This document shows, piece by piece, positions 5,324 to 42,388 of a stretch of 64,000 nt of DNA. This stretch comes from an uncultured delta proteobacterium (GTDB taxonomy: Bacteria; Desulfobacterota; Binatia; Binatales; Binataceae). The first letter of the stretch is position 1. Each line of letters starts with the position of its first letter. Under the pieces are notes generated by a model. That model saw nothing but the letters and a program-made list of their open reading frames with translations. It searched no databases and was not told where the DNA came from. Where the stretch lies: the NCBI GenBank assembly GCA_963711565.1, contig CAVQEQ010000004.1, positions 832,001 to 896,000 of the forward strand, in the 5' to 3' direction. Position numbers and translations under genes: made by a program.

Positions 5324-5998
5324 TTACTGTTCGGGCACCAGTTCGACGCGGCGGTTCTGAGCGCGGCCCTCAGCCGTTCTGTTGGTCGCGACGAAGCCGG
5401 TCTTGCCGTAGCCGTGCACCCTCAACTGGAGCACGTTGATTCCGCCGTTCATCAGGTAATTCGCAACGGCGTTGGCTCGATACTCGGAGAGCCTCTTGTT
5501 GTATGCGTCGTTGCCGATCCAGTCGCAGTAACCGTTCACGTTGATCACGGTGTTCGGATTGGCCTTTAGAGTAGGAATGGCTTCATCCAGCACGGCCGCA
5601 TCGCCCGGACGGATGATCGCCTTGTTGAAGTCGAAATGCACTCCGCGCAGCACCAGCTTCGGCGGTGGTGGAGGAGGTGGTGGCGGCGGTGGCGGAGGCG
5701 GCGGTGGAGGAGGTGGTGGCGGCGGCGGTGGCGGCGGATTCGGCGCCAGCAGGTAACCGATCGTGCCGCCGATTAGCGCGCCCCCGACGACTCCCACAGG
5801 ACAACCGATCTCATAGCCCTTGCCGGTACCGCTTAGTCCCGCGGCAAGTCCGCATCCCAGGCCTGCGCCGGCAATTGCGCCGTCAACCGATCCCCACCCC
5901 GCGTAGTATTTCTGCTCTGGCGTCCACGACGCGCATGACGAAGCCGTAAATAAAACGACAATCGCAAGTGCGCCTACCCAACTTTTCCGCTTATGCAC
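5324..5998 (-). CDS. OmpA-family lipoprotein, copy 1 (glycine zipper, Pro26, OmpA_C domain)
   Basis: Lipobox SSC; VHFDFNK, GYCD, LSEYRA, GRAQNRRVE. Confidence 0.93.
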   Translation of the reverse strand: MHKRKSWVGALAIVVLFTASSCASWTPEQKYYAGWGSVDGAIAGAGLGCGLAAGLSGTGKGYEIGCPVGVVGGALIGGTIGYLLAPNPPPPPPPPPPPPPPPPPPPPPPPPPPKLVLRGVHFDFNKAIIRPGDAAVLDEAIPTLKANPNTVINVNGYCDWIGNDAYNKRLSEYRANAVANYLMNGGINVLQLRVHGYGKTGFVATNRTAEGRAQNRRVELVPEQ

Positions 5999-6045
5999 TA
6001 GCACCCCTCCCTGGGATTCAAGCCGTTCCAGAATTTAGCACCCGA

Positions 6046-6074
6046 ATTGTGTCATTTTTGGGTATCTAGGTCTA
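6046..6074 (-). promoter_or_regulatory. Sigma70-like promoter of OmpA copy 1
   Basis: TAGACC-N17-CACAAT with TG extended -10; same motif before copies 2-4. Confidence 0.7.
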
Positions 6075-6127
6075 TTAGCGGACGAAGCGATTACCTAACA
6101 CGGGATTCGTAACCGTTCGTTCACCAG

Positions 6128-6165
6128 AAAAAAGCGGCCGCAGCCCCTCGAGGGGACTGCGGCCG
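6128..6165 (-). terminator. Intrinsic terminator of OmpA copy 2
   Basis: Same hairpin family plus T tract. Confidence 0.9.
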
Positions 6166-6193
6166 GTTACAAGCGTGTCAGTTCTGTTCCGAC

Positions 6194-6874
6194 TTACTCG
6201 TTAGGCACCAGCTCGACGCGACGATTCTGGGCGCGGCCCTCGGCCGTGTCGTTGGTGGCGACGAAGTCAGTCTTGCCGTAGCCGTGCGGAATCAACTGGC
6301 TCGACGGGATCCCAGCTTTCACCAGGTAGTCCACGACCGCATCCGAGCGCCGATCGGACAGCTTCAGGTTGTATTCCTCACCGCCGATCGCGTCGCAGTA
6401 GCCGTTGACGCCGATCGTCACGTTCGGATTGGCCTTCAGAGTCGATGCGGCCTCATCCAGCACGGCGGCATCACCCGGCCGAATCTTCGACTTGTTAAAG
6501 TCGAAATGCACACCGCGCAGCACCAGCTTCTGCTTGACCGGCGGCGGCGGAGGCGGTGGCGGAGGAGGCGGTGGTGGTGGCGGAGGAGGCGGCGGCGGTG
6601 GCAGAGGTTTAGGCGCCAGGAAGTAGCCGATCGTGCCGCCAATCAGAGCGCCGCCAACCACGCCGGTCGGGCATCCAATCTCGTAGGCTTCGGCGGAGTG
6701 ACCTTTATCCTGGGTGGCTGCAATTCCGCAACCGAGTCCGCCGCCCAGGAGCGCGCCGGCGCCCGCTCCGTAAAGCGTGTACTCCTTCTGCTCAGGCGTC
6801 CATGACGAGCATGACGAGACAGTGAGGAGCACGGCGCACGCCACTGCCGCAATCCAATTCTTCGATTTAAGCAT
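6194..6874 (-). CDS. OmpA-family lipoprotein, copy 2 (Pro21 linker)
   Basis: Lipobox SSC, glycine zipper, OmpA_C motifs. Confidence 0.93.
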   Translation of the reverse strand: MLKSKNWIAAVACAVLLTVSSCSSWTPEQKEYTLYGAGAGALLGGGLGCGIAATQDKGHSAEAYEIGCPTGVVGGALIGGTIGYFLAPKPLPPPPPPPPPPPPPPPPPPPPPVKQKLVLRGVHFDFNKSKIRPGDAAVLDEAASTLKANPNVTIGVNGYCDAIGGEEYNLKLSDRRSDAVVDYLVKAGIPSSQLIPHGYGKTDFVATNDTAEGRAQNRRVELVPNE

Positions 6875-6922
6875 TAAGACCCTCCCAAGTTACGAAGACA
6901 TCTCCGAAGGTAAACTCCCCAA

Positions 6923-6951
6923 ATTCTGACATTTTTGGAAAACCAGGTCCA
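6923..6951 (-). promoter_or_regulatory. Sigma70-like promoter of OmpA copy 2
   Basis: TGGACC-N17-CAGAAT. Confidence 0.7.
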
Positions 6952-7006
6952 TTGAGGCACCCAAGCCGTCTTATACCGCCTGACCCGTAACAGCTCGTTT
7001 ACAAAG

Positions 7007-7042
7007 AAAAGCGGCCGCAGCCCCTCGAGGGAACTGCGGCCG
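7007..7042 (-). terminator. Intrinsic terminator of OmpA copy 3
   Basis: Same hairpin family plus T tract. Confidence 0.85.
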
Positions 7043-7069
7043 ATTACTAGCGTTGTCAGTCTCGGCGAC

Positions 7070-7765
7070 TTACTCGTTAGGCATCAGCTCGACGCGGCGG
7101 TTTTCAGCGCGACCCTCGGCCGTGTCGTTGGTGGCAACGAAGTCAGTCTTGCCGTAGCCGTGCGGAATCAACTGGCTCGACGGGATTCCGGCGTTCACCA
7201 GGTAATCCACGACCGCATTCGCGCGCCGATCGGATAGCTTGAGGTTGTATTCCTCACCGCCGATCGCGTCGCAGTAGCCGTTGACGTAGATCGTCACGTT
7301 CGGATTCGCCTTCAGAGTTGATGCGGCCTCATCAAGAATTGCGGCATCACCCGGACGAATCTTCGACTTGTTGAAATCGAAATGCACTCCACGCAGCACC
7401 ACCTTCTGCTTGACCGGCGGCGGTGGAGGCGGTGGCGGAGGTGGCGGCGGAGGTGGAGGTGGTGGCGGCGGTGGCAGCGGTTTCGGTGCGATCAGGTAGC
7501 CGACGGTGGCGCCGATCAGTGCGCCGGCGCCGACTCCGACCGGGCATCCGATCTCATAAGCCTTGGCACCCTGCACGCCCACGCCACCATGTCCGGACGT
7601 CGCTGCGGCAATTCCGCAGCCGAGTCCGCCGCCGAGGAGCGCACCGGCGCCCGCTCCGTATAACGTGTACTCCTGCTGCTGTGGCGTCCAATTAAACGCG
7701 CACGACGAGAGCATCAGAAGAGCGACGCTCGCAAATCCGCCCACCCAATTTTTCCACTTGTACAC
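7070..7765 (-). CDS. OmpA-family lipoprotein, copy 3 (Pro20 linker)
   Basis: Lipobox LSSC, glycine zipper, OmpA_C motifs. Confidence 0.93.
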   Translation of the reverse strand: MYKWKNWVGGFASVALLMLSSCAFNWTPQQQEYTLYGAGAGALLGGGLGCGIAAATSGHGGVGVQGAKAYEIGCPVGVGAGALIGATVGYLIAPKPLPPPPPPPPPPPPPPPPPPPPVKQKVVLRGVHFDFNKSKIRPGDAAILDEAASTLKANPNVTIYVNGYCDAIGGEEYNLKLSDRRANAVVDYLVNAGIPSSQLIPHGYGKTDFVATNDTAEGRAENRRVELMPNE

Positions 7766-7815
7766 TAGAGCCCCTCCCTGAGTTTCAGCCGACCCCGCAA
7801 ATTAAAACTCCGTGG

Positions 7816-7844
7816 ATTGTGCCACTTTTGGGAAGGCAGGTCTA
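7816..7844 (-). promoter_or_regulatory. Sigma70-like promoter of OmpA copy 3
   Basis: TAGACC-N17-CACAAT. Confidence 0.7.
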
Positions 7845-7895
7845 TTGAGGAACAAATCGGTTCGGATAGCGTCACGTTCGTAACAGTTCCTTCAC

Positions 7896-7933
7896 AAAAA
7901 AGCGGCCGCAGCCCCTCGAGGGGACTGCGGCCG
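7896..7933 (-). terminator. Intrinsic terminator of OmpA copy 4
   Basis: Identical to the copy-2 terminator. Confidence 0.9.
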
Positions 7934-7961
7934 GTTACAAGCGTGTCAGTTCTGTTCCGAC

Positions 7962-8633
7962 TTACTCGTTAGGCACCAGCTCGACGCGACGATTCTGGGC
8001 GCGGCCCTCGGCCGTGTCGTTGGTGGCGACGAAGTCAGTCTTGCCGTAGCCGTGCGGAATCAACTGGCTCGACGGGATACCGGCTTTCACCAGGTAATCC
8101 ACGACCGCGTCCGAGCGCCGATCGGACAGCTTGAGGTTGTATTCCTCGCCACCGATCGCGTCGCAGTAGCCGTTGACGTTGATCGTCACGTTCGGATTGG
8201 CCTTCAGAGTTGATGCGGCCTCATCCAGCACGGCGGCATCACCCGGACGAATCTTCGACTTGTTGAAGTCGAAATGCACTCCGCGCAGCACCAGCTTCTG
8301 CTTGACCGGCGGAGGCGGTGGCGGCGGAGGAGGAGGCGGTGGAGGTGGTGGTGGCGGCGGAGGCGGTGCCGGTTTCGGCGCCAGCAGGTAACCGTTCACA
8401 GCGCCGATCAGCGCGCCCATCACGACGCCAGTGGGGCATCCGATCTCATAACCCTTGGCGGAGCCACTTACTCCCGCTGCAATCCCACAACCCAGGCCGC
8501 CGCCGATGAGCGCGCCGGCAGCCGCTCCGCCCGCAGTGTATTCCTTCTGCTCCGGCGTCCACGACGCGCATGACGAGACCGTCAGCAGCACGGCGATCGC
8601 TCCAGCGCCAATCCAATTTTTCCAACTAATCAC
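7962..8633 (-). CDS. OmpA-family lipoprotein, copy 4 (Pro20 linker)
   Basis: Lipobox VSSC, glycine zipper, OmpA_C motifs; GTG 8633 is 6 nt after GGAGG. Confidence 0.93.
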   Translation of the reverse strand: MISWKNWIGAGAIAVLLTVSSCASWTPEQKEYTAGGAAAGALIGGGLGCGIAAGVSGSAKGYEIGCPTGVVMGALIGAVNGYLLAPKPAPPPPPPPPPPPPPPPPPPPPVKQKLVLRGVHFDFNKSKIRPGDAAVLDEAASTLKANPNVTINVNGYCDAIGGEEYNLKLSDRRSDAVVDYLVKAGIPSSQLIPHGYGKTDFVATNDTAEGRAQNRRVELVPNE

Positions 8634-8680
8634 TAGCACCCTCCATCAAGTTCAAGTTAGTCCGGAATCAAACGCTGCTA

Positions 8681-8709
8681 ATTCTGCCTTTTTTTGGACG
8701 CTGGGTCTA
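8681..8709 (-). promoter_or_regulatory. Sigma70-like promoter of OmpA copy 4
   Basis: TAGACC-N17-CAGAAT. Confidence 0.7.
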
Positions 8710-8770
8710 TTCACGCGTCGAGCAGGTCTGTTACGCGGGGCTCGTAATAGTGCCGTAATCGGCAGGATAC

Positions 8771-8811
8771 AAAAAATGCGGCCGCAGCCCCCTTGACGGG
8801 ACTGCGGCCGC
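8771..8811 (-). terminator. Intrinsic terminator of OmpA copy 5
   Basis: Same hairpin family plus T6. Confidence 0.88.
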
Positions 8812-8840
8812 TTTACAGACAATCTCAGTCTCGGCCCGGC

Positions 8841-9554
8841 TTACTCATTCGGTACCAGTTCGACGCGGCGGTTCTGAGCGCGACCCTCAGCCGTGTCGTT
8901 GGTGGCAACGAAGTCAGTCTTGCCATAACCGTGCGGGATCAACTGGCTCGACGGGATTCCGGCTTTCACCAGGTAATCCACGACCGCATCCGAGCGCCGA
9001 TCGGACAGCTTGAGGTTGTATTCCTCGCTGCCGATAGCGTCGCAGTAGCCATTGACGTTGATCGTCACGTTCGGATTGGCCTTCAGAGTCGTTGCGGCCT
9101 CATCCAGAACGGCGGCGTCACCCGGACGGATGATCGACTTGTTGAAGTCGAAATGCACACCGCGTAGTACCAACTTCTCCTTTACCGGCGGCGGCGGAGG
9201 AGGCGGTGGAGGCGGCGGCGGAGGAGGTGGCGGCGGTGGAGGAGGCGGCGGTTGGATTACTTCGTCGCAGAGGTAGTGGCCCGCTAGCGCGCCGACCAAG
9301 CCGCCTGCGGCTGCTCCGCCCAAGCCCGCCCATACGCGGGAATCATTGCTGCTGTTCGATTTCCCTTGGGTATTGTCAACGATGACGATGCCTGAAGCGG
9401 CACCGATACCCGCTCCAAGTGCGCCACCGACGGCCGCGCATATTCCCCACGATCGTGGCTGCTCCAGATATGCGCAACCGCTCATGCTGGACGCGAATAG
9501 CGCCGCGCCAGCGATGGCAACGACCGCATTCAAAAGCCTTGATTTCAGTCTCAT
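8841..9554 (-). CDS. OmpA-family lipoprotein, copy 5 (Pro22 linker; most divergent N-terminus)
   Basis: Lipobox MSGC, glycine zipper, OmpA_C motifs; ATG 9554 after GAGGAGG. Confidence 0.93.
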   Translation of the reverse strand: MRLKSRLLNAVVAIAGAALFASSMSGCAYLEQPRSWGICAAVGGALGAGIGAASGIVIVDNTQGKSNSSNDSRVWAGLGGAAAGGLVGALAGHYLCDEVIQPPPPPPPPPPPPPPPPPPPPPPVKEKLVLRGVHFDFNKSIIRPGDAAVLDEAATTLKANPNVTINVNGYCDAIGSEEYNLKLSDRRSDAVVDYLVKAGIPSSQLIPHGYGKTDFVATNDTAEGRAQNRRVELVPNE

Positions 9555-9821
9555 GAACTCCTCCTCACCCAAGAGCGTCTACGCGCGGAAGTGAACCCCT
9601 CACTTGCCCCCGAACGGCGAACCCATGTGCAAACGGGTATCCCCACCCAATTGACGGGGAAATATAGTTATATTTGTAACAGGAATGCAACACGTCCGGG
9701 GGGTGCAAGGCGAGATTTCTGCCCAGAGACTGGCTGGCGTCGCTGCGGCGAAGCCCGGTCGACCTGTGGATAAGTGTCGCTGAATTTGTTCCGGTTACCC
9801 GGTAAGGCGGGGCTGATACGA

Positions 9822-9872: not shown

Positions 9873-10352
9873 TCAGTTATGGTGATGATGCTTCTGCGCA
9901 GGGATTGCTCCTGCTTCGTTTGCTCCAGCCACCGGCTCGTGCTCTGCATAGGTACCCGGATGCGGCGCGACCTCGGCATGATTCTGGGCCCATTCGGGAT
10001 GATCATGCGCCCACTCTGGATGGTGCTCGTTCACCCAGTTGGGGTCGTGCGCATGCCACCAGTTCTCGTCGCGCCATACGTGACCCGAATCGTAGGCCCC
10101 GACGCCGTGCTGGGCGAGCCTCTTGTATTCGTTGGGATGGTTCTGCATGAACGTCTGCAATTCAGGATGCTCATCGCGGAATTGCTTGTTGTAAAGCAGC
10201 GACGGATCGGCGCGTACTTTAGCAGCCAAGTCCGGATGCGCATTGAGAAACTTGTCCATTTTCGGGCCCATCTCCTGCGCCATCGCCACCGATGTTATCG
10301 CGGTCGCGAGCAGAATAATCGCGCCGGCTAGCAAGGTTTTAGGATGCTTCAT
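9873..10352 (-). CDS. Secreted His/Trp/Pro-repeat hypothetical protein
   Basis: Signal peptide AMA-Q; repeated HP[DE][LW]; C-terminal HHHH; AGGAG RBS. Confidence 0.85.
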   Translation of the reverse strand: MKHPKTLLAGAIILLATAITSVAMAQEMGPKMDKFLNAHPDLAAKVRADPSLLYNKQFRDEHPELQTFMQNHPNEYKRLAQHGVGAYDSGHVWRDENWWHAHDPNWVNEHHPEWAHDHPEWAQNHAEVAPHPGTYAEHEPVAGANEAGAIPAQKHHHHN

Positions 10353-36916: not shown

Positions 36917-38482
36917 CTATCTGACGGCGAAGATGCGGCCGGTCGATGTCCCGACGTAGAGCATCCCCGACGGCGACGATGCGGCCGTCGCGATCTTGCC
37001 GAAGCTTCGCAACGTCCAGACGTAGGTGCCGTCGCCCGTCAGCACCGCCCCGACGTCGCCGGTCGCCGCGTCGAACACGCCGTCGTCGCCAACCACGCTC
37101 AATCCGGCGTCGCCCGGTTTCAGCGACGAGTTTTCCCATTGGACCTGCCCGTCGGCATTGACGCTATAAATCGTATCTGAGCCGGCGAAGATTGCGCCCG
37201 ATGGAGCGACAACAGGTCCAGCCGTGACCGCATTCGCGGAGTTGCTGTGCCATAGCGGATTGCCGGTACGCGAATCGATTGCATATATGCCGCCGCCCAC
37301 CGAGCCCGCGTAAACCACGTCATCTGAGTAAGCAACCGATCCCGAAAATCCGCCGTCAGGCTGGAACGTCCACACTACGGCGCCGTCCGCCGCGAGTGCC
37401 GAGACCGCGCCGCGCGAGGTTCCCACCACGACCCCGTCTGGAGTCGCCGCCGCACTGGTCACCGGTCCGATGCTCACGCGCCAATTGAGAGAGCCGCCGG
37501 TGCTGACGGACACGAGGTCGCCGCCGACCGAAGCGTAAATCGCGCGATCGGTTGCCGCGAGCGGTCCCGCGCTATCGCCAATTTCAAGATTCCAGAGCGT
37601 CGCGCCGTCAGGACCGATCGCGGCAAGTGCCGACTTGGACACCATCGCGACCACCGTTCCGTCCGGCAACACCACTGGTGACGAACCGTCGGCAGAGCGG
37701 TGCATGGTTTCCTTGCCCGCGGAATTCAGCCCGTGCAGCACGCCGTCGCGCGTAATGAAGAATATCGAGCCGCCGGCGCCGGTCGCGATTCGTCCTCGTA
37801 GTTCCGCGCCCGCGTCGAAGGTCCACATCAGGACACCCGCACTCCGCGCCGACGGCGCAGGCGTGCTGGAGGCTGCCGGCGCCAGGGCGCCACCCGGCGT
37901 CGCCGTTGGAGTCGCAATAGGCGTGGGGCACATGAAGGCGGTTCCGCCGGGGCCGCACGTGGCGAGGTTGTCGTAAACACCGATCGCAAGAAACTGACTG
38001 CTCACACCGGAACTGCTCGCAAGGATGCAGACGCATCCGGCAAATCCGGTCGTATAAACGCCGCCCAAGTCGCCGGACGGCGGCGCCAGCAGCACAGTGT
38101 TGTCGGTGGAGGTCCAAAGTGTGGCCGCTCCCGCGGTGATATCCACGTACTTGATTCTTTTGTTCCTGATGAAGGTACCGATCGCATTAAATGAGATCGT
38201 CCCGCCGGTCGGCACGCTGCCAGGCTCAATGTTGGTTGGACTTGCTGACGGCCGCGGCGTCAGCGTGGGCGTCACGCTGTTTTTGGGAGTGGGGAACACT
38301 GTGGGCGTGGGCGAGGGCGGAGCGCCGGTCGAGATCGTGATCGCTTCGAGCGCGAAGCCAGGACTTGGAGTTGGAAGAGTTCCGCCGCTACCACCGCTGC
38401 CGCAACTGAGCAGGATTGCTCCGAACACGAACAACACCACCGGCGCAACCACCAGCAATCTAAGCCACCGCGACAACATCAA
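36917..38482 (-). CDS. Lipoprotein with Pro/Thr linkers and PQQ-like beta-propeller repeats
   Basis: Lipobox LLSC; repeated A…dG…W motifs. Confidence 0.85.
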   Translation of the reverse strand: MMLSRWLRLLVVAPVVLFVFGAILLSCGSGGSGGTLPTPSPGFALEAITISTGAPPSPTPTVFPTPKNSVTPTLTPRPSASPTNIEPGSVPTGGTISFNAIGTFIRNKRIKYVDITAGAATLWTSTDNTVLLAPPSGDLGGVYTTGFAGCVCILASSSGVSSQFLAIGVYDNLATCGPGGTAFMCPTPIATPTATPGGALAPAASSTPAPSARSAGVLMWTFDAGAELRGRIATGAGGSIFFITRDGVLHGLNSAGKETMHRSADGSSPVVLPDGTVVAMVSKSALAAIGPDGATLWNLEIGDSAGPLAATDRAIYASVGGDLVSVSTGGSLNWRVSIGPVTSAAATPDGVVVGTSRGAVSALAADGAVVWTFQPDGGFSGSVAYSDDVVYAGSVGGGIYAIDSRTGNPLWHSNSANAVTAGPVVAPSGAIFAGSDTIYSVNADGQVQWENSSLKPGDAGLSVVGDDGVFDAATGDVGAVLTGDGTYVWTLRSFGKIATAASSPSGMLYVGTSTGRIFAVR

Positions 38483-38576
38483 GCCATGAGCTATGACTGA
38501 TGCAATCGCGCGCTGTCAAGTTGAACAGCGATTTCGGCTTGCGAAGACCTTCCGAAAAGCCAGTCTGTATTCGCTT

Positions 38577-38725
38577 AAAACAAAAAATGGCGGGCATCTG
38601 AAGAGGGGGGGACTCTCCAATGCCCGCCTGTTCGTAGCGGCCGTCCGCGTACGCTGCGGACGGAAACCGGTTGATTGGGAGGAACAAACCAACCGGCCAG
38701 GTGCCAGAGCCGTGCGCACCTGTCT
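38577..38725 (-). ncRNA. Candidate four-hairpin sRNA with anti-SD / C-rich loops
   Basis: Stems at 38698-38722, 38667-38696, 38641-38663 and 38589-38628, then a U tract; ends are inferred. Confidence 0.55.
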
Positions 38726-38827
38726 ATTGAGACGATTCAATTCGGTGATTATTCAAAGACAAAAAAGTTTTCATTTGCACGTACCGTCAGTCGGACTAGA
38801 CTCGGCGCCGGAGGGTACGAAAAAGCT

Positions 38828-39835
38828 ATGGAATATCGGCGATTAGGTGGAACCGGGCTCAAAGTTTCGGAACTTTGTCTGGGATGCATGACGTTTGGAC
38901 GTGAGACTGACGAAAAAACTGCGGGAAAAATTCTTGACCGGTTTATTGAAGTCGGCGGCAATTTCCTCGACACCGCGAACGTTTACGCAGCCGGCGCGTC
39001 GGAGGAAATTCTCGGGCGAATTCTCGGCGAGCGCCGAAAAGATTTGATTGTCGCGACGAAAGTCCGTTTCAACGCAAATATTTTCATGGGCAAGACGGTC
39101 GCCCCGAATCAAATCGGCCTCTCGCGCGGCCATATCATGTCGGAAGTCGAGGCGAGCCTGCGCCGATTGAAGATGGACTACATCGATCTTTACCAGGTGC
39201 ATTCTTGGGACTTCGAAACGCCGATTGAAGAGACGATGCGCGCGCTGGACGACCTCGTGCGCCACGGCAAGGTGAGATACATCGGCGCGTCGAATTTTAC
39301 GGCGTGGCAACTGATGAAGAGTCTGTGGGTCAGCGATAAACGCGACTTCGCGCGCTTTGATTGCCTGCAGCCGCAATACAGCCTGATATCGCGCGAGATC
39401 GAGCGCGAGATTTTGCCGCTGTGCCGCTACGAAGGCGTCGGCGTGATTCCGTGGAGTCCGCTCGGAGGTGGATTTCTGACCGGCAAGTATCGTTCGGGTC
39501 AGCGTCCGCCCGAGGATAGCCGCCTCGCGAAGATGGATATGTGGAATCGCCTCGCCGACGAACGCAATTACAAGACGCTCGAAGCGGTCGAGCACGTGGC
39601 GAAGGAACGCGGCCGTCCAATCTCGCAGGTCGCGCTCGCGTGGGTGAATCAGCAGCCGGGTGTCAGCTCGGTGATTTACGGCGCGCGGACCGAAGAGCAG
39701 AACGAGCAGAATCTCGGCGCCATCGGATTTCGGCTCGAGGCGGCGGAGCTCGCGGCGCTCAACAAGGCGAGCGCGTTGCCGCCCGAGTATCCCGACGCGA
39801 TGCAAGCGCGGCTGCCCGGTTATCCGCGCCAGTAA
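38828..39835 (+). CDS. Aldo/keto reductase
   Basis: LGCMTFG, DTANVY, SLRRLKMDYIDLY, PWSPLGGG; ATG 38828. Confidence 0.95.
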   Translation: MEYRRLGGTGLKVSELCLGCMTFGRETDEKTAGKILDRFIEVGGNFLDTANVYAAGASEEILGRILGERRKDLIVATKVRFNANIFMGKTVAPNQIGLSRGHIMSEVEASLRRLKMDYIDLYQVHSWDFETPIEETMRALDDLVRHGKVRYIGASNFTAWQLMKSLWVSDKRDFARFDCLQPQYSLISREIEREILPLCRYEGVGVIPWSPLGGGFLTGKYRSGQRPPEDSRLAKMDMWNRLADERNYKTLEAVEHVAKERGRPISQVALAWVNQQPGVSSVIYGARTEEQNEQNLGAIGFRLEAAELAALNKASALPPEYPDAMQARLPGYPRQ

Positions 39836-40840: not shown

Positions 40841-40867
40841 GCAACTTTTCGCGGGCTCGTTCGTCTT
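40841..40867 (+). promoter_or_regulatory. ECF sigma-type promoter
   Basis: GCAAC-N16-CGTCTT upstream of the Spy-like/ECF/anti-sigma operon. Confidence 0.6.
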
Positions 40868-40909
40868 GCAGACAAAGAACACGCGGCAATAGCCCGAGGG
40901 GTGATGAAT

Positions 40910-41422
40910 ATGTGGAAATCCAGATTCTCGATTCCGATCGCGATTGCGATTCTCGGCGGTTGCGTCAACGCGGGCGTCGCGCGTGCGCAGGATATGATGG
41001 GACCGCCGCCCGGGGGCCCGATGGGCGGACCGCCGCCGGTTCCGCCGCCTCTGATGATGGCGCTGCGCGCGGCAGCTCTGACTCCCGCGCAGCAAAAGCA
41101 AGTTCATGAAATTATGAACGCGAGCCGCACGAGCAGCGAACCGCAGATGCAGCAGATGCACTCGATCCGCGATCAGATTGCGGACAAGCTGCTATCATCG
41201 GGCAGCGTGAGCGCGTCGGACTTGGCGCCTTTGCTGGCGCAGCAGACGGCGATCCAGCAGCAGCTCGATAATCAAATGATATCGACGGCGCTTCAGATTC
41301 GCGGCGTCCTGACATCCGACCAGTTGAGCAGAGTGGCGTCGGTGCACGACAAGCTCAAAGCAATCCATTCGCAGATCGATTCGATTCTCGGACCGCCGCC
41401 AGATGCGCCACCGATCCCTTAA
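40910..41422 (+). CDS. Spy/CpxP-like periplasmic protein (LTxxQ motifs)
   Basis: Signal peptide, Met/Pro-rich segment, LTPAQQ and LTSDQ; start after GAGGGG. Confidence 0.85.
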   Translation: MWKSRFSIPIAIAILGGCVNAGVARAQDMMGPPPGGPMGGPPPVPPPLMMALRAAALTPAQQKQVHEIMNASRTSSEPQMQQMHSIRDQIADKLLSSGSVSASDLAPLLAQQTAIQQQLDNQMISTALQIRGVLTSDQLSRVASVHDKLKAIHSQIDSILGPPPDAPPIP

Positions 41423-41429
41423 CACTGCG

Positions 41430-41978
41430 ATGCGCCACGAGCCCGCGCCCGATCTCGCCGCGACGATCGAGAGGGCGCGGGCCGGCGATCAGGCGGCAAT
41501 CCGCACGCTCATCGAGCTCTATCAGGGACGCGTGGGGCGATTTGTGCTCGCGATGCTCGGCGATGACAGCGAGTGGGAAGATGTCGCGCAGGCTACTTTC
41601 GTCAAGATGATGCTGGGAATCGAGCGGCTGCAAGCCGGCGACATTTTCGAGTCGTGGCTCTTCAGGATCGCGCGCAATGCATCGCTCGACCATCTCAGGC
41701 GACGGCGATGGCGCCGGCTGTTCACGTCGTGGGAGCCGCATCACGGCGAGGTCGCTGCGCCCGTGCGCGAGATCGAGGATCGGCGCCTGGTTCAAGTGGA
41801 GCGCGAGCTGAGGAAACTGCCGGTCGATCAGCGCGAACTCATTTTGCTCATGCGCGAGAACGACTGGAGCTACGGCGATCTCGCGCGCATAACCGGAGTC
41901 ACTGCCACCGCGGTCAAGTCGCGGCTGTTCCGCGCGCGCAGCCGCCTCCGCGCGCTGATGAACGGAGATGAATCATGA
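41430..41978 (+). CDS. ECF RNA polymerase sigma factor
   Basis: EDVAQATF, WLFRIARN, SY.DLA…VKSRLFRAR. Confidence 0.93.
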   Translation: MRHEPAPDLAATIERARAGDQAAIRTLIELYQGRVGRFVLAMLGDDSEWEDVAQATFVKMMLGIERLQAGDIFESWLFRIARNASLDHLRRRRWRRLFTSWEPHHGEVAAPVREIEDRRLVQVERELRKLPVDQRELILLMRENDWSYGDLARITGVTATAVKSRLFRARSRLRALMNGDES

Positions 41979-42388
41979 GAGATGAAAGATTCCCCTGGAC
42001 CGATGTCGGGCAGGGGCCGGAGCCGCGGTTGTCCGCCGATTTTGCCTCGCGCGTGATCGATAAGGCACACGCGGCTCGAGCACGAAAGCGTCGTGCAAAG
42101 ATCGAGCTCGGCGTTACGGCAGGACTCGCCGCGATCGTCGCATTGTCTCTCCTGATGCGCACGACGACACCCTCGAATCAACAAGCTTCACGCGGTGTTG
42201 CACCGTCGCGCGCAATCTCCGATCTCGACACCTTCAGCTGGAGCGACAATCCAGACCCCGATGTGCTCGGGGTCCTCATGCCGAGTGCGCTGCAGGCAGA
42301 GAAGTTCGACGCGTACTACGGCACGGCTCCATGGGACACCTACGCAAGTTGGGATCCCGATTCGTACGACGCGTCGCGCACCCGCTGA
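41975..42388 (+). CDS. Putative single-TM anti-sigma factor
   Basis: ATGA overlap with sigma; DFASRV followed by one TM helix. Confidence 0.75.
   Translation: MRDERFPWTDVGQGPEPRLSADFASRVIDKAHAARARKRRAKIELGVTAGLAAIVALSLLMRTTTPSNQQASRGVAPSRAISDLDTFSWSDNPDPDVLGVLMPSALQAEKFDAYYGTAPWDTYASWDPDSYDASRTR

Follow-up and report, generated by a model that had tools for sequence, protein, structure and literature searches.

A conserved small RNA of the Binataceae with an ECF-type promoter and two C-rich loops, predicted to act on translation

What is encoded between a probable lipoprotein gene and an aldo/keto reductase gene on a contig of an uncultured member of the Binataceae? The window analyzed here (the whole stretch of 64,000 nucleotides, positions 832,001 to 896,000 of contig CAVQEQ010000004.1, assembly GCA_963711565.1) had been read from its letters alone, and this initial annotation proposed an unannotated small RNA (sRNA) with four hairpins, an anti-Shine-Dalgarno loop and an ECF-like promoter, possibly linking a nearby ECF module to an array of OmpA genes in an envelope-stress response. 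Our analysis points, with moderate confidence, to a stand-alone, conserved sRNA that is likely driven by the core RpoE-like sigma factor of the family and is predicted to repress translation through two C-rich loops acting on G-rich ribosome-binding sites (RBSs), probably on many mRNAs including those of envelope proteins.

Each element named initially, from the four hairpins to the promoter and the U-tract, sits at its place on the minus strand (Table 1), and the promoter, the U-tract and the G-U pairs all indicate this strand. The promoter consists of TGAAT (38755-38751), 16 nt and CGTCTC (38734-38729). The predicted folding held up, since 156 nt of the locus gave z = -6.56 with none of 200 shuffles equal, and the 143-nt RNA itself (38721-38579) folds as four hairpins (z = -5.04; 0/200 shuffles equal). 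The first stem requires a small correction: both of its arms are present, at 38722-38716 and 38704-38698, but the RNA probably starts at 38721, where an adapter junction lies in two runs, so that the first C of CAGGTGC falls outside the RNA.

Table 1. Coordinates of the small RNA gene, its parts and its neighbors in the window.
Feature	Position	Strand	Remarks
sRNA gene	38579..38721	minus	~135 nt through the terminator stem, 143 nt including the U-tract; RNA contigs, fold z -5.04
-35 element TGAATA, ECF-type promoter	38750..38755	minus	TTGAATAAT unchanged in 30/30 Binatus loci
-10 element CGTCTC	38729..38734	minus	ATCGTCT unchanged in 30/30 Binatus loci
Hairpin 1	38699..38721	minus	Loop ACGGCUCU at 38713-38706; stem covaries
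Hairpin 2	38667..38696	minus	Anti-Shine-Dalgarno loop UUCCUCCC at 38684-38677; predicted seed 1
Hairpin 3	38641..38663	minus	GC-rich, loop variable, structural
Linker CGCUACGAAC, single-stranded	38630..38639	minus	Kept in one clade only
Hairpin 4, intrinsic terminator	38589..38628	minus	C-rich loop UCCCCCC at 38612-38606; predicted seed 2
Terminator U-tract	38577..38588	minus	Sequence; conservation falls off right past the U-tract
Separate sigma70-type promoter of the downstream gene, TTGACA-N17-TCATAG	38490..38519	minus	
Downstream neighbor, probable lipoprotein with PQQ-repeat (BamB-like beta-propeller)	36917..38482	minus	Pfam PF13360; outside the RNA
Divergent neighbor, aldo/keto reductase	38828..39835	plus	Pfam PF00248; outside the RNA

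Evidence of transcription came from RNA contigs of eight runs from seven studies, out of 24 runs listed (22 on record as RNA). These contigs are soil-library transcripts of relatives, picked for holding this stretch and silent on strand, level and true ends; stretches without RNA coverage were not taken as silent. The matching contigs of the eight RNA runs are confined to 38583-38721. In runs X1 and X2 adapter follows directly after 38721, 7 nt past the -10 hexamer, and an X2 contig is bounded by adapter at 38587-38721. A T-run abuts 38588 in one X5 contig, as a poly(A)-tailed 3' end on the minus strand would give. Most other contigs end within the RNA, and one X4 contig (depth 2) extends 103 nt beyond the terminator. 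Run X3 has a summed depth of 3767 over the RNA and none over the aldo/keto reductase gene, and in X1, X2 and X7 the reductase gene is covered only by short pieces with unrelated ends. The contigs and their matching ends support the discrete RNA proposed initially. That contigs reach such depth in bulk soil samples might mean that expression is constitutive rather than stress-induced.

The element was recovered by blastn from 35 of 36 same-genus genomes and from none of 24 genomes of other families. Across 30 aligned Binatus loci the promoter and loop words vary little or not at all, and conservation stops at the U-tract. When 36 Binatus sequences were aligned with MAFFT, without fitting to a model, paired cells made up 98.5%, a value that none of 500 shuffles reached, and slid controls gave 30-49%. 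Double-sided changes occur in 9 of the 37 pairs of this alignment, in a kind of test that kinship inflates, and in 30 of 37 pairs of the family alignment, which is model-fitted and thus leans to the model. For hairpin 3 the corresponding counts are 2/8 pairs (MAFFT) and 8/8 (model-fitted alignment).

A covariance model (R1) found matches in 116 of 150 Binataceae genomes, belonging to 23 of 30 genera, with 112 at E<1e-7 and four weak ones (E>1e-5) that may represent a sibling family. A broader model, R2, gave a match in two of ten family genomes without an R1 match, and neither R1 nor R2 matched any of 133 genomes from other families of the class. This search of related genomes therefore upholds a conserved structured RNA that is family-wide. 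Several genera keep the core sigma factor yet gave no RNA match (eight of ten genomes re-searched with R2).

Some matches were rejected. A phylum-wide R2 match (one in 150 genomes, E=4e-4) is a terminator lacking the promoter and loop 2, and a fourth R1 match of the own genome (C4:784893-785031, E=0.004) resembles coding sequence. The promoter-plus-CTCCTCC pattern was found in 15 of 214 out-of-family genomes; ten such loci, together with a second site in a same-genus genome, were discarded with a best R2 E-value of 0.094. A looser pattern, run on five RNA-lacking genomes, returned 28 matches and 17 in the reversed control.

The deepest conservation lies in the two C-rich loops. Among 43 family-wide homologues, loop 2 contains CCTCC in all 43 and CCTCCC in 39, and is predicted to be unpaired (>0.8) in 36; the 3' end of 16S, taken from the genome itself, has the identical word, and the initial designation as an anti-Shine-Dalgarno loop was correct. 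The terminator loop carries CCCCCC in 42/43 homologues, with the C-run predicted unpaired (>0.8) in 34, and the GCGGGC of hairpin 4 is present in 43/43. The hairpin-1 loop GGCTCT occurs in 12/43 homologues (Binatus and some close genera only) and the linker word CTACGAAC in 11/43.

The gene has been copied or altered in parts of the family. Extra RNA copies with their own promoter exist in some genomes of genus g38, where L073, L074, L075 and L076 represent two to three diverged copies per genome, most with their own promoter and some with hairpin 3 lost or replaced. In two relatives (L006 and L010), part of the promoter is tandemly duplicated upstream of the -35 element (extra TTGAATA words). 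A second, related RNA family (family B) was also encountered, at G000:C1:585107-585250 (-) and G000:C4:109568-109704 (+) in the own genome and at L041, L042, L037, L038, L078 and L079, with R2 scores of 42-57 bits. It has the same C-loop terminator and a GC hairpin, with single-stranded ATTCTTCCA replacing loop 2, and neither of two loci scanned for a TGAAT-type promoter had one. Its members lie 3' of genes for small membrane or secreted proteins, DUF3309-like and, we presume, of general-stress type, and may be 3'-UTR-derived, judging from this arrangement.

Which sigma factor drives the RNA? GAAT-N16/17-CGTC lies upstream of it in 46 of 50 homologous loci (40 family-wide and ten chosen from the 36 Binatus; the four misses include two sibling-family loci), which supports the ECF-type promoter. 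Among 15 sigma-70 region-2 matches in the genome, only one has a TGAAT-type site upstream (G000:C4:1420709, after polA). This core sigma gene is present in 58 of 60 family genomes, and the motif precedes it, just before the TTG start, in 30/30 loci; it also precedes degP (G000:C4:1084604; TIGR02037 above cut-off) in 30/30 loci, against a background of 1.5-4.2% of own-genome genes, depending on the pattern. The RNA therefore has a promoter motif in common with a sigma gene and degP (46/50, 30/30 and 30/30 loci), as sigmaE-type sRNAs do. An anti-sigma-like gene, whose match is below cut-off, comes next after the core sigma gene. The sigma factor itself scores 137 bits against NCBIfam RpoE TIGR02939, below the cut-off of 236, so that "RpoE-like" is an analogy.

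ECF sigma factors usually autoregulate (PMC7826278), which together with the shared motif makes the core sigma factor the likely driver of the RNA. The RNA promoters read TGAATA and most sigma and degP promoters TGAATT, a difference that leaves some doubt and would allow for another sigma factor. The motif resembles ECF26 promoters of Sinorhizobium, GGAATA/GT (PMC6180224), a likeness and no group assignment; the main text of the ECF classification paper gives no promoter motif strings. The envelope-stress reading of the initial annotation is indirectly supported by the same promoter before the core sigma gene and degP.

At the core sigma gene (G000:C4:1420675-1422403; L178, L185-L214) the promoter lies ~7 nt before the TTG start in nearly all 30 loci, and its mRNA is, from this spacing, probably leaderless and autoregulated; the operon continues with the anti-sigma-like gene and a periplasmic-type gene. 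A genome-wide promoter scan yielded 25 intergenic candidates, compared with eight for the reversed motif, and conservation was checked for the sigma gene and degP only. Further candidate promoters of the same class lie at G000:C1:174366 (+), C1:199596 (-), C1:230699 (-), C2:147503 (-) and C4:368396 (+), before an orphan anti-sigma-like gene, an ABC transporter, an lgt-like gene (labeled by sequence appearance) and two others. In the window, TGAATA-N16-CGTCT at 10558-10531 (-) stands ~206 nt upstream of a small secreted protein (9873-10352), a possible regulon member by its promoter; the gene of this protein immediately precedes the OmpA-like array and has the same orientation.

Under the preferred reading, envelope stress would free the core sigma factor, which would then transcribe its own gene, degP and the sRNA. 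The two C-rich loops would pair with G-rich RBSs and block initiation without Hfq, and pairing would start as loop contacts, perhaps aided by KhpA/B, which the genome encodes. Repression of exported proteins would act as negative feedback on envelope load, as with FoxI, MicA and RybB. The inventory of RNA chaperones is consistent with such a mode of action: Hfq was over cut-off in 0/101 family genomes, in a search that was positive in five of 14 control genomes, and searches of the own genome (95% complete) detected neither ProQ nor CsrA but gave two matches to KhpA/B-family domains.

The same C-rich loops might instead titrate an RNA-binding protein, for example one with a KH domain, or sponge G-rich RNAs, as a decoy driven by the stress sigma factor. 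Such a role would agree with loops that do not vary although no conserved target is conspicuous, with a contig depth that suits a stoichiometric function, with the presence of KhpA/B-family genes and with a second RNA family of the genome that shares the C-loop terminator. However, loop 2 is the exact anti-Shine-Dalgarno word, RsaE, RNAIII and LhrC are known to use C-rich loops as seeds for RBS pairing (PMC8383071), and a search of the own genome did not detect CsrA, which decoys classically target. A CsrB/RsmZ-type decoy in particular would go with CsrA and an RNA with GGA loops from the opposite strand, whereas the promoter, the U-tract and the G-U pairs here point to the minus strand. We consider a decoy unlikely, and infer base pairing by the loops rather than protein binding.

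If the RNA does pair, its targets might still be of another kind: it could serve a general-stress or dormancy response, damping translation of many strongly initiated mRNAs whatever their class, or, in the manner of cuckoo RNAs, that of metabolic and transport genes, with no envelope preference. GGGAGG lies near the start of 152/4368 genes, the best loop-2 predictions include enzymes and regulators, and family B sits behind small membrane-protein genes of presumed general-stress type. The best predicted targets of the hairpin-1 loop and the linker, among 4368 ranked genes, have no theme. As for exported proteins, the loop complements GAGGGG and GGGAGG are the top two of 254 hexamers before signal-peptide genes, and the raw enrichment (p=3e-8) weakened to p=0.011 after paralogous secreted families of the own genome were collapsed. 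With paralogues collapsed, GGGAGG stands before signal-peptide genes in 19/107 cases, compared with 31/134 for the ordinary AGGAGG, and it is enriched in the RNA-lacking genome G106 as well (8/27 vs a background of 72/477). Loop complementarity was related to signal peptides beyond 16S pairing at p=0.011 in the own genome with these paralogues removed, at p=0.017 in the RNA-bearing genome G064 and at p=0.094 in RNA-lacking G106. Gene calls, start calls and the signal-peptide rule behind these figures are heuristics, and the controls covered parts of two genomes (G106, 1.2 Mb; G064, 0.8 Mb). Paralogous families, together with strong Shine-Dalgarno sites, account for most of an enrichment that was striking at first, and we retain from it a hint of a preference for exported-protein targets. 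The weakness of this enrichment after controls favors the general-stress role. Against it stand the two conserved members of the regulon that were tested, namely the sigma operon and degP, which encodes the classic envelope protease, and we regard a response indifferent to the envelope as improbable.

A bolder version of the envelope reading is a Shine-Dalgarno regulatory code, in which expanded exported-protein families would carry GGGAGG/GAGGGG sites that match both loops better than ordinary sites do, so that one abundant, chaperone-free RNA would throttle export-bound translation when the envelope sigma factor fires, and 3'-derived siblings would reuse the C-loop terminator. We put this forward as a speculation that is unlikely to hold.

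The initial annotation had named a more specific partnership, in which the neighboring ECF (41403-41978) drives the RNA and the RNA silences the OmpA-like array. The resemblance to the promoter of that module, at 40841, extends to the -10 CGTC and the 16-nt spacing, but this site reads GCAAC-N16-CGTCTT, with GCAAC in place of TGAAT at -35. Homologues of the 41403 ECF (~46-53% identity) were matched in 10 of 60 family genomes and in neither of the RNA-bearing same-genus genomes G034 and G107; given its -35 and this patchy distribution, it is not the driver. The module (window 40841-42388, +) lies between two short-chain dehydrogenase genes and comprises, behind its promoter, a Metal_resist-family periplasmic protein, the sigma gene and a small anti-sigma-like gene; a similar sigma is encoded at G000:C3:255372.

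On the target side, the window's "OmpA" genes are OmpA-domain lipoproteins, not porins (best matches below cut-off). Five tandem genes for glycine-zipper lipoproteins with poly-proline linkers occupy 5324-9572 (-), a sixth OmpA-domain gene lies at G000:C3:24431, and copy number ranges from 0 to 6 across family genomes. The match claimed for OmpA copy 2 exists, as TTGGGAGG at 6888-6881, but its pairing is not special (rank 108/4368 genes for loop 2). GGGAGG(G) sites precede three genes of the array, of which the one starting at 7765 ranks 30/4368 for loop 2 and 83rd for loop 4, and loop 4 pairs more strongly with OmpA-like leaders outside the genera that lack the RNA (median -10.6 vs -6.75 kcal/mol, p=0.012, with kin not independent). 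However, conserved OmpA pairing did not emerge: GGGAGG/GAGGGG stands before 2/12 OmpA-like genes in RNA-lacking genera, compared with 9/26 in genomes outside that class (p=0.44), a count that left out genes for which no lipobox was parsed, copy 2 among them. A dedicated circuit of this ECF and the OmpA-like array is thus very unlikely; as targets of the core-sigma-driven repressor, OmpA-like genes could be some among many.

The RNA is also independent of its flanking genes. The PQQ-repeat gene is downstream in 35/36 Binatus loci and 18/40 family-wide loci, the aldo/keto reductase upstream in 34/36 and 9/40, and the promoter, loop 2 and the terminator loop persist while the hairpin-1 loop and the flanking genes change. 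TTGAC follows the terminator in 36/36 Binatus loci at a variable distance (28-204 nt), and this promoter of the downstream gene is retained in two genomes that lack the RNA at this site. The downstream gene having its own promoter, the RNA is not its leader, and the claim of a stand-alone sRNA is sustained by this promoter and by the RNA's place before other genes in many genera. A leader or riboswitch would instead keep its place ahead of a single class of gene, which would have no promoter of its own. Distances between conserved motifs are spread over all three reading frames (21, 8 and 7 of 36 sequences), which excludes a conserved peptide, and any ATG within the first 95 nt occurs in 12/36. 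Despite the shared strand, the adjacency in 35/36 Binatus loci and the one contig that runs beyond the terminator, a leader, riboswitch or attenuator of the 38482 gene, or a hidden small peptide, is scarcely credible.

For the Binataceae, a family of uncultured soil bacteria, these results provide a family-wide sRNA with expression evidence and a candidate sigma factor, as well as a first candidate regulon consisting of the sigma operon, degP and the sRNA. All parts are testable in a laboratory host without culturing the organism. The RNA was rightly described as unannotated, with 0 Rfam matches at the gathering threshold for the window and seven divergent or related loci; four sub-threshold matches (E 1.3-8.1) were judged to be chance. 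Our search found no literature on regulatory RNAs of Binatota, Binataceae or Binatia, soil metatranscriptomes included and supplements outside its scope.

Comparison with known systems places the RNA among several familiar types. The cuckoo RNAs (CcsR, alpha-r14/NfeR) likewise have adjacent hairpins, variable stems and an anti-Shine-Dalgarno loop (PMC4615179). They carry CCUCCUCCC in each of two to four adjacent hairpin loops and, according to this source, are reported only in Alphaproteobacteria (PMC4615179). The Binataceae RNA, in contrast, has CCUCCUCCC in one of four loops only, with the window copy reading UUCCUCCC; loops 1 and 3 are without the motif and loop 4 is a C-run, and it is not a cuckoo RNA. 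RepG of Helicobacter pylori uses a C-rich terminator loop as a seed on a G-run without Hfq, whereas no conserved poly-G leader target was identified here (GGGGGG near 22/4368 starts).

MicA, RybB, MicL and VrrA work with Hfq and single-stranded 5' seeds. These gammaproteobacterial sigmaE RNAs are, like the Binataceae RNA, stand-alone sRNAs with a sigma regulon that includes degP (PMC9546586). Repression at translation starts is common to MicA/RybB-type RNAs and the Binataceae RNA, where it is predicted; the latter differs in that Hfq was not found (0/101 genomes) and that its conserved predicted seeds are hairpin loops. In this respect it recalls LhrC1-5 of Listeria monocytogenes, which combine an envelope-stress link with redundant C-rich sites in a stem-loop and a terminator loop, pair with RBSs without need for Hfq and exist as sibling copies, as in some Binataceae genomes (PMC4132741, PMC8383071). 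The LhrC/RsaE type is marked by C-rich motifs that are conserved and unpaired in an apical loop and in the terminator loop; such motifs occur here in 43/43 and 42/43 homologues, mostly predicted to be unpaired. LhrC RNAs are under LisRK two-component control and have three UCCC sites (PMC4132741, PMC8383071), whereas the Binataceae RNA has an ECF promoter, two C-rich loops and mostly a single copy. LhrC proper was accordingly rejected, with no Rfam match and an ECF-type promoter instead of LisRK control.

FoxI of Fusobacterium nucleatum is a non-coding arm of a sigmaE response that operates without Hfq, as we propose here; it has its promoter class in common with an autoregulated sigma gene, and KhpB has been suggested as a helper (PMC9546586). 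Its sigma dependence and at least seven envelope targets are proven (PMC9546586), while both are proposed for the Binataceae RNA, which belongs to a different phylum with no sequence relationship shown. If confirmed, the Binataceae would be another lineage after Fusobacterium with a sigmaE-type non-coding repressor arm without Hfq, and Gram-positive-style C-rich loop seeds would be placed in a sigmaE-type circuit, which bears on the repeated origin of this circuit. The RNA is thus a new sRNA family of a familiar regulator kind, whose mechanism is not new: by analogy, its closest functional match would be FoxI, and its seed anatomy resembles that of LhrC.
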